DNA of 58,579 nt, the filler included, from Basidioascus undulatus (Eukaryota): NCBI GenBank assembly GCA_000826855.1. It is 4 parts of 4 records of this genome, joined end to end, with 100 filler letters (N's around TTAATTAATTAA, not from the genome) between each part and the next. Parts side by side here need not be neighbours in the genome. Positions count along the whole stretch, not along the records: positions 14,682 to 29,255 come from JTLS01000715.1; 3 more parts are not named here. The stretch is one strand, 5' to 3'. The notes beneath the pieces are model-generated. The model searched no databases, was not told the DNA's origin, and worked only from the letters and a program-made list of their open reading frames with translations. Of the stretch, positions 22,845 to 43,241 are shown piece after piece. Each line of letters starts with the position of its first letter. Positions within the stretch are counted from its first letter, which is position 1. The position numbers and the translations under genes are program-made.

Positions 22845-24865
22845 TTAAGCCTGCGCAGCGACCGACTGGGCGAGGACACCGCCCTCCTTGGCAACGCAAG
22901 CCTGCAGGCGGCACATCTCGCGCCTGGAGAGTTGAAGGTGACGATTAGACTCGACTCGTCAGTGGGAAAGGTGAAGAGAGGCACGCACTGTTTGGCGGTG
23001 CCGTCGGTGTTGTCAACCTCGAGGTCCCACGAGAGGAACTCATTGGTCATGTTCGGCTTGAAGTCCGGCTGGACGATGCCGAGGCGGATGGAGTAGTTCG
23101 TGACCTTAGAGGTCATGCGTGTTGATCAGTAACAACACCCCCATGCGAAACGCAAGAGGTAGAGGAGATGAGCACACCTTCGTCCAGTCGCGCTTGACAT
23201 TGGCGAGGTCGCGCGAGAGGTAGTTGAACGAGCGGTCGAACTGGAGTGCGTTGAGCTTGGTGTTCATCGCGGGCTGCAGGGGTTGTGACAACGATCGTGA
23301 GCATTGGTGGATGCGAAGAGGATTGGTGGGAGATGGTGGAGAGGGCGCACCTTGAACGCGCAGTACTTCTCCCAGCCGGCCTTGGGGTCCTTGAAGAGCT
23401 CGTCGGCGCCACGCTTGACAGCACGCATGAACGCGCCGGTCTCCTTGGGGTGAGCCTTGATCCAGTCCTCGTTGCCTGTTCAACGCGAGGGACATCAGCA
23501 CAGCGTAGGCAAGAGTAGGAAGATAGAAGCGTGCGCACCGATGTAGAGGATAGAGCAGAAGCAGCAGCACCCAAGCTCAGCGAGCTCGTCGATGCGGAGC
23601 ATCTTGACGTCGGACGCGGGGCGGCCGTTGGCCTTGCACCACTCCTCGAGCTGTGGTTCCAGGCGTCGTTCAGTTTCTTCCGTCTCCATGCAACGGAGTC
23701 CCCAACTACCGTGCTTGTCGACAATGAAGCAATCCCAGGCAGGCATTACCCTGCGCAGGTTATGGCGGTCTGATCTCAGCACGACCCGCTCGGAGGCGGG
23801 TCGGCACCCGCTTGACGTTCATAGCGACAAGCTCCCTTTAGGAGACGCGAGCGTACCTGACTTGGCAGCCCGAGAATGGAAGAAAGAAAAAATAGCGAAA
23901 GAGACGCGGTGGTCCCGGTTGGGTAGCGGGTTCACGACCTCGCGGATCATCTCACCTCGACCTGCTGGACTGCGGGAGGGGGCAAGGAAGGGTGTGAGTA
24001 CGTCCAACCAAGGAGGGAGGCGACAGGGAAAGAAGGGTAGGGATTTTACTGTTCTCGAGACCGATGCCGGCGTCGATCGTGCCCTCGATAATGGCCTTAG
24101 AGATGTTCATGCCGCAACGGACAGCGGTGTAGTCCGCAGGGGTCATGCCTGCCCCGGCGGTCCGCCCTTTGAGTCGCCCGCACGTCACCCAAAGCTCGAC
24201 CGTCAACATACCGTAATGCTTGGTGAGTTCGTCGATTTGAACCTTGCCAAACTCGCCGACGTACCCGATCCTCTTGCCCTTGAGGGACTGGAAGTCGGAG
24301 GTGACGCCCGAGCCCTATTGACGTTTCACTCTCCGTCAACACCCACAAGTCTCGCACGACCTGGCCTGAAAAACTACGCACCTCGAGGTAGAGTACGCCG
24401 GTGAAGGGCTCGTCCATGAGCGTGCCGATGGACTTGATCGGGTAGCCGCGGGCCTTGCCAGCGATGGTGTGGACCATGGCCTTGGTGCCGAGGTCGGCCT
24501 TGCCAGCGCCCTGAGAGCAGCAGAGTACACGGTCAGCGAGCTGCGCGATTAGATAAAAGAGTGAGGCCACACGCACGATGAGCTCCGTCACGTCCGAGGG
24601 GTCGTTGGGTTCGAGGATGGCGACCTTGATGCCCTCGTCCTTGAAGTAGCCTGTCGGACCATGAGGATCAGGCCCGATGCGGGGAGACGTCCATGGTGTT
24701 GTCTGATGTACCATTGGCCTGAGCAAGGAAAAGCGGGGCGTGGTACGCCGTCGCGTGCCTATCAACAAGAATCCGGTCGGGTCAGTCAATCCAGGCTCGA
24801 GAAGGTGGTCGAAAAGAGAAGACACACCAGTTGAGGAGGACAGAGATCTTGTCAGTGGTCGCCAT
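22845..24865 (-). CDS. THI5: HMP-P synthase of thiamine biosynthesis (THI5/NMT1 family), multi-exon
   Basis: [119 protein letters not shown]. Confidence 0.97.
23726..23814 (-). ncRNA. TPP riboswitch aptamer within a 305-nt coding-region intron (23651-23955) of THI5/NMT1
   Basis: Sense strand AAGC GGGTGC CGACCCGC-CTCCGA-GCGGGTCG TGCTGAGA TCAGACCGC CATAACCTG CG CAGG GTAATG CCTG CCTGGGATT GCTT: P1 AAGC/GCTT, perfect 8-bp P3, CTGAGA junction, TAAT L5 loop; host gene is a thiamine synthesis gene. Confidence 0.92.
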
Positions 24866-43168: not shown

Positions 43169-43241
43169 TGACCACTGCAGGGCTCGATCCTGCGACATTT
43201 TGCGTGTTAAGCAAACACTCTACCAACTGAGTTAAGCGGCC
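43169..43241 (-). tRNA. tRNA-Val(AAC), intronless
   Basis: GGCCGCT TA ACTC AGTTGGTA GAGT G TTTGC TT-AAC-AC GCAAA ATGTC GCAGG ATCGAGC CCTGC AGTGGTC A folds into a full cloverleaf; T7 Pol III terminator 2 nt downstream. Confidence 0.93.

Follow-up and report, generated by a model that had tools for sequence, protein, structure and literature searches.

The THI5/NMT1 gene of Basidioascus undulatus carries in its seventh intron an element that, judging from its sequence and its conserved pairing, is a genuine aptamer of the thiamine pyrophosphate (TPP) type in the middle of the coding sequence (CDS). The gene encodes the 4-amino-5-hydroxymethyl-2-methylpyrimidine phosphate (HMP-P) synthase and lies in a stretch of 58,579 nucleotides (nt) from assembly GCA_000826855.1, referred to here as the window. 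Considering the observed anatomy of the intron, the aptamer match, the identical truncated product given by two splicing routes, and the conservation of intron, aptamer, and stop codon in one relative, we favour a thiamine-repressed splicing switch, to which we give a probability of about one half. The regulated step would be the efficiency of splicing from the distal donor (donor 1) to the acceptor, lowered by retention or by less productive splicing. The aptamer would thus govern whether intron 7 is removed productively: a ligand-bound, tightly closed aptamer would lead to retention or nonproductive splicing, as an off-switch like DUR31 or NCU01977. Whichever nonproductive route dominates, it would give a fragment of 170 amino acids (aa), and the message would be a likely target of nonsense-mediated decay (NMD).

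The TPP Aptamer of Intron 7

The elements of the aptamer are the following.

23821-23716, minus strand: TPP aptamer of the eukaryote type without P3a (RF00059), with P1, P2 (GCGG/CCGC), P3, P4, and P5 (CAGG/CCUG)
23779-23774, minus strand: J3-2 of the aptamer, CUGAGA
23832-23825, minus strand: 5′ strand of the outer helix, GCUUGUCG, 8 bp, perfect, extending P1
23720-23713, minus strand: 3′ strand of the outer helix, CGACAAGC, partner of GCUUGUCG

An earlier note on this DNA had placed a TPP aptamer at 23726-23814 and had named the Rfam model RF00059 as a check. The search was run at permissive thresholds, and the model matched from end to end (model positions 1-105 of 105) at 23716-23821 with 34.4 bits. 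The match is significant though below the gathering score, which is the reason why the default Rfam scan of the window misses the aptamer and reports only a tRNA gene. The E-value was 4.5e-5 in 501 nt, 4.1e-4 in 4.5 kb, and 0.0053 when computed over the whole window and all 4227 Rfam families. At permissive thresholds no further TPP match was found in the window, and none in the 5′ leader of THI5. Such scores are normal for the fungal aptamers of this set, given that RF00059 searches of 20 relatives' loci returned 13 matches, 10 of which were below gathering (37.7-52.7 bits).

We aligned 14 fungal THI5-associated aptamers, that of the window included (alignment A1). CTGAGA was invariant across the alignment. 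In stems P2, P4, and P5, 91.8% of the cells pair and 7 of the 12 pairs changed on both sides, a result matched by none of 500 shuffles; the aptamer of the window pairs at all 12 tested positions, with two G-U pairs in P4. The extra 8-bp helix which had been proposed to enclose the aptamer does exist and exceeds chance, given that only 0.24% of 5000 shuffled flank pairs contained a perfect run of at least 8 bp.

The THI5/NMT1 Gene and Its Microexon

The gene model is composed as follows.

24865-22845, minus strand: CDS of THI5/NMT1 (HMP-P synthase), 12 exons, 343 aa, open spliced frame
24865-24828, 24758-24712, 24650-24577, 24510-24382, 24314-24212, and 24148-24050, minus strand: exons 1-6
23969-23956, 23650-23539, 23475-23351, 23273-23178, 23104-22989, and 22923-22845, minus strand: exons 7-12
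23969-23956, minus strand: microexon 7, 14 nt (TCCAGCAGGTCGAG, encoding (I)QQVE), required for the colinear ...GLENIQQVELEEW... in all aligned relatives

By homology along its whole length, the gene is a THI5/NMT1 HMP-P synthase. The family identity is based on the comparison of exon 4 with the PDB, where the Thi5/Thi13 structures 4esx and 4h65 (HMP-P synthases) were matched with an E-value of 3.6e-16, and on the precomputed PF09084 domain of the relatives, present in 19 of the 19 protein matches of the THI5 search. Between the spliced model and full-length relatives bearing PF09084, identity is 78-79% across 317-340 aa (78% over 340 aa for P0006), and the nearest named ones belong to Naganishia, followed by Phenoliferia, Mucoromycota, Sporobolomyces, and Wallemia. 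The intron density, a GC content of 58%, and this set of relatives would point to a basidiomycete, probably a yeast similar to the Tremellomycetes. All 11 introns of the model have GT..AG borders.

Microexon 7, which was missing from the earlier note, follows an 80-nt intron and sits directly 5′ of the riboswitch intron. Since the protein alignment is gapless across ...GLENIQQVE/LEEW..., the microexon and both of its flanking introns are considered real. The sequence of another relative, P0004, retains the introns on either side of the microexon while introns 1-5 are absent, and this read-through hints that splicing around microexon 7 may be slow or coupled.

Intron 7 and the Truncated Product

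The splicing signals of the intron are listed below.

23955-23651, minus strand: intron 7, 305 nt, aptamer-bearing, between codons 168 and 169 (...IQQVE/LEEW...)
23955-23947, minus strand: donor 1, GAG/GTGAGA, with the in-frame TGA at 23949-23947 (GTG AGA TGA = V R stop)
23856-23851, minus strand: candidate donor 2, CAG/GTACGC, whose use would keep 99 nt of the intron
23674-23668, minus strand: branch-like ACUGAAC
23652-23651, minus strand: AG of the acceptor CACAG, ~65 nt 3′ of the aptamer

The 305-nt intron reported previously between ...IQQVE and LEEW... holds at 23955-23651, and its two donors (23955 and 23856) and acceptor (23651) were confirmed by the sequence. The other ten introns of THI5 measure only 61-80 nt, which makes intron 7 4-5 times as long. 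By its likeness to the CTGAC/CTGAT of these introns, ACUGAAC is the putative branch site. We built a donor matrix from the gene's ten other donors and scored with it the 8 GT sites upstream of the aptamer. Donor 2 reached 7.2 bits and donor 1 reached 5.0, the six other GTs being between -6.4 and 2.1; with the top score of the 8 sites, donor 2 is a credible candidate. Among the public sequencing runs listed as containing the gene, none was of RNA.

The 99 nt kept by donor 2 do begin GTG AGA TGA, as had been described. Because GTG AGA TGA opens the intron, retention of intron 7 and splicing from donor 2 yield the same product, ...IQQVEVR-stop, of 170 aa. Only the 23955-to-23651 splice gives the full 343-aa enzyme, and the other routes truncate after residue 168; the truncation put forward in the earlier note is therefore borne out to the extent that any transcript missing donor 1 stops at the TGA two codons into the intron. 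The 170-aa fragment presumably lacks the C-terminal half of the enzyme, CCCFC motif included. Taking into account that four exon junctions lie downstream of the premature stop, the nonproductive THI5 message would be a likely NMD target.

The Same Intron in an Environmental Relative

The protein search with exon 4 returned an open reading frame (ORF) of 169 aa (P0003) which shares 90% of its residues with exons 1-7 and whose last residues are ...IQQVEVR. Its 1529-nt environmental contig (L001) contains exons 1-7 and exons 8-12 as two unbroken blocks with a 357-nt spacer between them. The spacer is located at the same codon as intron 7, starts GTAAGATGA (V-R-stop), and ends TTGCAG. It also contains a TPP match of 29.1 bits (local E 7e-4), in which P3 is long. 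By eye, compensatory changes were seen between the window and L001 in P2 (GCGG/CCGC against GCGA/UCGC) and in P5 (CAGG/CCUG against CAUG/CAUG). The intron starts (23955-23939 in the window and 615-631 in L001) share 13 of 17 nt (GURAGAUGA..CGCGA), well beyond the donor consensus; past these first 17 nt the pre-aptamer regions are unalignable. Given that only 84 of 167 third codon positions are identical between the two genes, the intron, the aptamer, and the V-R-stop have outlasted considerable divergence.

Regarding the nature of L001, it includes 113 nt ahead of the ATG and 26 nt beyond the stop, and about 20 other intron-free contigs with the full CDS are alike. It carries no poly(A), and a TATAAAA is present ~70 nt 5′ of the ATG. 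Its mRNA size and the absence of the other introns favour a transcript, and L001 is more likely a transcript retaining only intron 7. Under either reading of the contig, as transcript or as genomic DNA, the comparison argues that intron 7 is special.

In the intron of L001, nt 22-48 pair with the P5-3′/P4-3′/P1-3′ strand of the aptamer at -27.5 kcal/mol, a value found in 0.2-0.6% of shuffles, and the minimum free energy (MFE) structure takes this pairing in place of the aptamer. The nt 22-48 element is without GU. As modelled, the platform of L001 is closer to the long-distance switch described by Li and Breaker (2013) than to donor masking.

Weighing of the Splicing Switch and Its Alternatives

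The behaviour of the splice sites was modelled by partition-function folding of microexon 7, intron 7, and 20 nt of exon 8 in three constraint states. The aptamer dominates the predicted ensemble, with -128.7 of -130.1 kcal/mol. The mean unpaired probability of donor 2 was 0.34 unconstrained and 0.35 in both other states (aptamer enforced; 5′ strands of P4 and P5 kept single). In the MFE structures of all three states the GU of donor 2 is held in a local hairpin:

23872-23848, minus strand: predicted 9-bp local hairpin CGGGCUGCC / GGUA-GCUCG

If real, this hairpin would restrict the use of donor 2 whatever the ligand state.

Several of our results weigh against the favoured splicing switch. 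The aptamer does not reach the 54.3 bits of the RF00059 gathering score. In the models, neither the two donors nor the branch-like site or the acceptor becomes noticeably more or less accessible when the state of the aptamer changes. No statistically outstanding switching helix was found in the window when donor-2 masking and alpha-like pairing were tested; for the former, 20-36% of 500 shuffles gave an equal or stronger duplex. The sequences with an aptamer at the position of intron 7 are two (the window and L001), too few for covariation of the platform, and L001 may come from the genome of a relative poor in introns. Finally, the aptamer of the window has lost a contact to the ligand, described below, and its TPP binding may be weakened or lost.

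The earlier note had explained the intron in a different manner. Without TPP, the 3′ strand of P5/P4 would hide donor 2; with TPP, donor 2 would be freed, the 99 nt and their TGA would be kept, and the mRNA would be truncated or degraded. We consider this transfer of the Neurospora crassa NMT1 mechanism into the CDS a possible explanation, clearly behind the favoured one. Such a mechanism is established for the NMT1 and THI4 leader introns (PMC3597705), and donor 2 outscores donor 1 (7.2 against 5.0 bits). The masking was examined by pairing the P5/P4 3′ strand of the aptamer with the 139-nt upstream region, the shuffles preserving dinucleotides. Its top upstream partner includes CAGGUA:UGCCUG at donor 2 (-15.5 to -17.4 kcal/mol), and among the 8 GU contexts that of donor 2 formed the best duplex (-13.2 kcal/mol, followed by -12.3 and -11.2). 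The complementarity indicated in the note therefore exists, with some pairs beyond CAGGUA:UGCCUG and an energy of -12 to -17 kcal/mol, but it is no better than chance, as the shuffles show, and the margins between GU sites are of ~1-2 kcal/mol. The local hairpin, together with an accessibility of donor 2 that stays constant through the modelled states, also counts against unmasking, as does L001, whose aptamer-complementary element has no donor-like GU. Ligand-free masking of donor 2 by P4/P5 is thus left unsupported, though unrefuted.

A further change in the aptamer, overlooked in the earlier note, concerns the pyrophosphate pocket.

23739-23738, minus strand: J5-4, CC where the consensus is CG; G78-equivalent absent

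The window reads ...CCUG-CC-UGGGA, against ...GCG... in the 12 other distinct cores (13 of the 13 other rows of A1). Following the Rfam consensus line, the lost G would be the equivalent of thiM G78, and in thiM both C77 and G78 hydrogen-bond the pyrophosphate directly, according to PMC7824784. It is on this absence that the doubt about TPP binding rests. Consequently, the aptamer could be decayed or nonresponsive, intron 7 being long but constitutively spliced, an alternative to which we attach slightly less weight than to the unmasking of donor 2. The conservation of this G in all other fungal aptamers of the alignment, a score 20 bits under gathering, and the lack of a statistically supported switching helix in the window agree with it. 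However, all the stems, the pyrimidine-sensor core, and the 8-bp closing helix are intact, and neutral decay would be expected to hit the stems. The low score is partly due to two typical fungal traits, the lack of P3a and an insert in P3; the intact 5′-leader aptamers of relatives also score 37.7-52.7 bits, and the gene has no second aptamer.

A mechanism of the NCU01977 type, in which an element just 3′ of donor 1 would pair with the 3′ half of the aptamer without TPP, bringing donor 1 near the acceptor, and TPP would break the pairing and lower productive splicing, seems improbable for the window. The pairing of nt 22-48 in L001 speaks for it by its strength, its rarity among shuffles, and its use in the MFE structure. 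The distances agree as well with the rule given in PMC3597705 (element <60 nt from donor 1; end of the aptamer ~65 nt from the acceptor). Nevertheless, no alpha-like element was found near donor 1 in the window, 34% of shuffles being as good; the intron has 305 nt and not 550-900 nt, and the evidence comes from one other sequence. A chance resemblance with no riboswitch descent, for which only the sub-threshold Rfam score speaks, is scarcely credible in view of the E-value over the whole window and all families (0.0053), the host, which is a thiamine-synthesis gene and a classic host, the homologous aptamer in the same intron of the diverged L001, and the strong covariation of the stems.

Comparison with Known Riboswitches

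The layout of intron 7 corresponds to the Type III of Mukherjee et al. (2018, Sci Rep, PMC5882874), in which an internal intron of 200-400 nt between coding exons harbours the aptamer, two donors precede it and enclose an in-frame stop, and the acceptor follows closely. Each of these structural elements was found in the sequence of the window: intron 7 of 11 with 305 nt, donors at 23955 and (candidate) 23856 with the TGA between them, and the acceptor at 23651. Type III is described there as computationally predicted, and it "has not been experimentally observed." In the 60 NMT1 rows of its table that we covered (the term occurs 75 times), every ascomycete Type III NMT1 aptamer is placed at 100-543 nt from the gene start, in genes with longer spans than those of Type I, and we take these cases to be leader introns. 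Within these rows and the additional one for Wallemia, the latter would be the only mid-gene NMT1 precedent. Our literature search found no paper on a THI5/NMT1 riboswitch in the middle of the CDS beyond this table; Moldovan, Petrova, and Gelfand (2018, Fungal Genet Biol) may cover basidiomycete placements. The novelty implied by the earlier note was then overstated, considering that the layout is catalogued (PMC5882874) and that coding-intron switches producing premature stops are known from the reports on NCU01977 (PMC3597705) and DUR31 (PMC5997356), both experimentally shown.

By comparison with N. crassa NMT1 (Cheah et al. 2007, via Li and Breaker 2013, PMC3597705), the window has the same gene family, the same aptamer class, and an aptamer 3′ of the second donor, and the thiamine-repressed logic of that gene is like the logic proposed here. 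In N. crassa the intron is 5′ of the main ORF, the output is an upstream ORF, and the P4-P5 masking was demonstrated; in the window the intron separates codons 168 and 169 and leads to a premature stop unless spliced from donor 1, the masking helix is at chance level, and there is no leader aptamer. N. crassa NCU01977 has an element near donor 1 which pairs with the 3′ side of the aptamer, as L001 does; unlike THI5 it encodes a transporter, and its intron measures 550-900 nt and offers several alternative donors (Li and Breaker 2013, PMC3597705).

C. parapsilosis DUR31 (Donovan et al. 2018, PMC5997356) resembles the window in having a coding intron with the stop between two donors. According to that paper, thiamine mainly raises the unspliced form, a likely NMD target, and by analogy DUR31 would be the closest functional analogue of what L001 suggests. 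In contrast, this gene of an ascomycete yeast encodes a transporter, and its intron lies close to the 5′ end, the stop falling after 58 aa. Chlamydomonas reinhardtii THIC (Croft et al. 2007, via PMC3597705) shares with the window a pyrimidine-branch gene, a coding-intron aptamer, and a truncating stop. Unlike the window, it is an algal gene for the THIC enzyme and not for THI5, regulated through the choice of 3′ splice site via P1.

As for the distribution, the table of Mukherjee et al. shows an NMT1 riboswitch in 1 of the 23 rows labelled Basidiomycota (PMC5882874), and a 2024 ACS Omega survey gives it as absent in its Basidiomycota. If functional, the element of the window would clearly illustrate how TPP controls the pyrimidine branch in a basidiomycete, and its 305-nt intron would be a compact test case for the still-predicted Type III mode. 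L001 offers a natural comparison with a different-looking expression platform, and the missing G78-equivalent a natural experiment on what the pocket of a eukaryotic TPP switch needs. Current understanding is not overturned: the kind of riboswitch is already catalogued, and what is new is the locus itself.

Riboswitch Introns in Other THI5 Relatives

The break at the end of microexon 7 was also searched for in 134 relatives, of which 96 have the motif G[IL]E..Q.VE. Only P0003 breaks off after the motif and only P0008 has an insert; the other 94 run on into exon-8 sequence, and P0004 breaks earlier, at intron 6. The intron of P0004 opens V-R-L..., so that the immediate TGA is not universal.

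P0008, from Wallemia ichthyophaga (1061 aa), has an insert of 6 aa, YTVHKK, exactly at QQVE/LEEW, as expected from a slightly mis-set intron border. The annotated protein fuses PF05978, PF00153, PF07690, and PF09084. Its gene model is probably wrong around the riboswitch intron. In the table of Mukherjee et al. the NMT1 riboswitch of this species (NW_008806295.1) is located 682-834 nt into a 1596-nt gene of 6 exons (PMC5882874). Taking the insert and this mid-gene placement together, the Wallemia riboswitch seems to be at the same intron position, shared across distant basidiomycetes.

A wider set of 64 THI5 loci was also searched, the contigs of P0004, P0001, and P0002 being outside it. Of the 13 RF00059 matches in relatives' loci, 12 are 5′ of the CDS, in leader position, and one (in L011) is 3′; a motif scan of the loci gave additional upstream TPP cores. 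Four environmental contigs have another long intron, of 320-500 nt, after residue ~87 (TLMDE/PFTG) of their THI5 homologues.

L043, 2975-3296: residue-~87 intron
L044: residue-~87 intron
L045: residue-~87 intron
L047, about 900-1316: residue-~87 intron

In each of the four GGTAACGTC is present, where a donor-like GT overlaps an in-frame TAA. The intron of L043 matched RF00059 with 30.9 bits (E 2.3e-4) and an unusual P4. The RF00059 search of the long intron of L047 gave no match, and by eye it was possible to see a GGGTGCC...GCTGAGA...ACCG core. This is apparently a second, independent placement of a coding-intron riboswitch in THI5.

From these relatives a broader proposal could be made, which we regard as unlikely: an old, selected basidiomycete arrangement in the middle of the CDS (Wallemia and L001, with L043-L047 in parallel), whose remodelled pyrophosphate pocket would have an altered affinity or recognise another thiamine-related ligand, and which would control intron retention beside the microexon.

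The short intron of L038 was tried as a riboswitch-free homologue of intron 7 and rejected, because it is 4 nt from the intron-6 site and away from the intron-7 site. In L011, a contig of 2067 nt, the TPP aptamer at 1596-1712 scored 59.5 bits, above gathering, and is ~240 nt 3′ of the THI5 match; it could act as a riboswitch in the 3′ region or belong to the leader of an adjacent gene.

Other Features of the Window

Two further features were noted. An ORF of 270 aa on the plus strand, at 23592-24404, runs antisense to exons 5-8 of THI5 and to intron 7, and is probably no more than a mechanical consequence of coding DNA rich in GC. The tRNA gene of the default scan is at 43169-43241 on the minus strand (RF00005, 60.1 bits) and is the sole match in the window at the Rfam gathering threshold.

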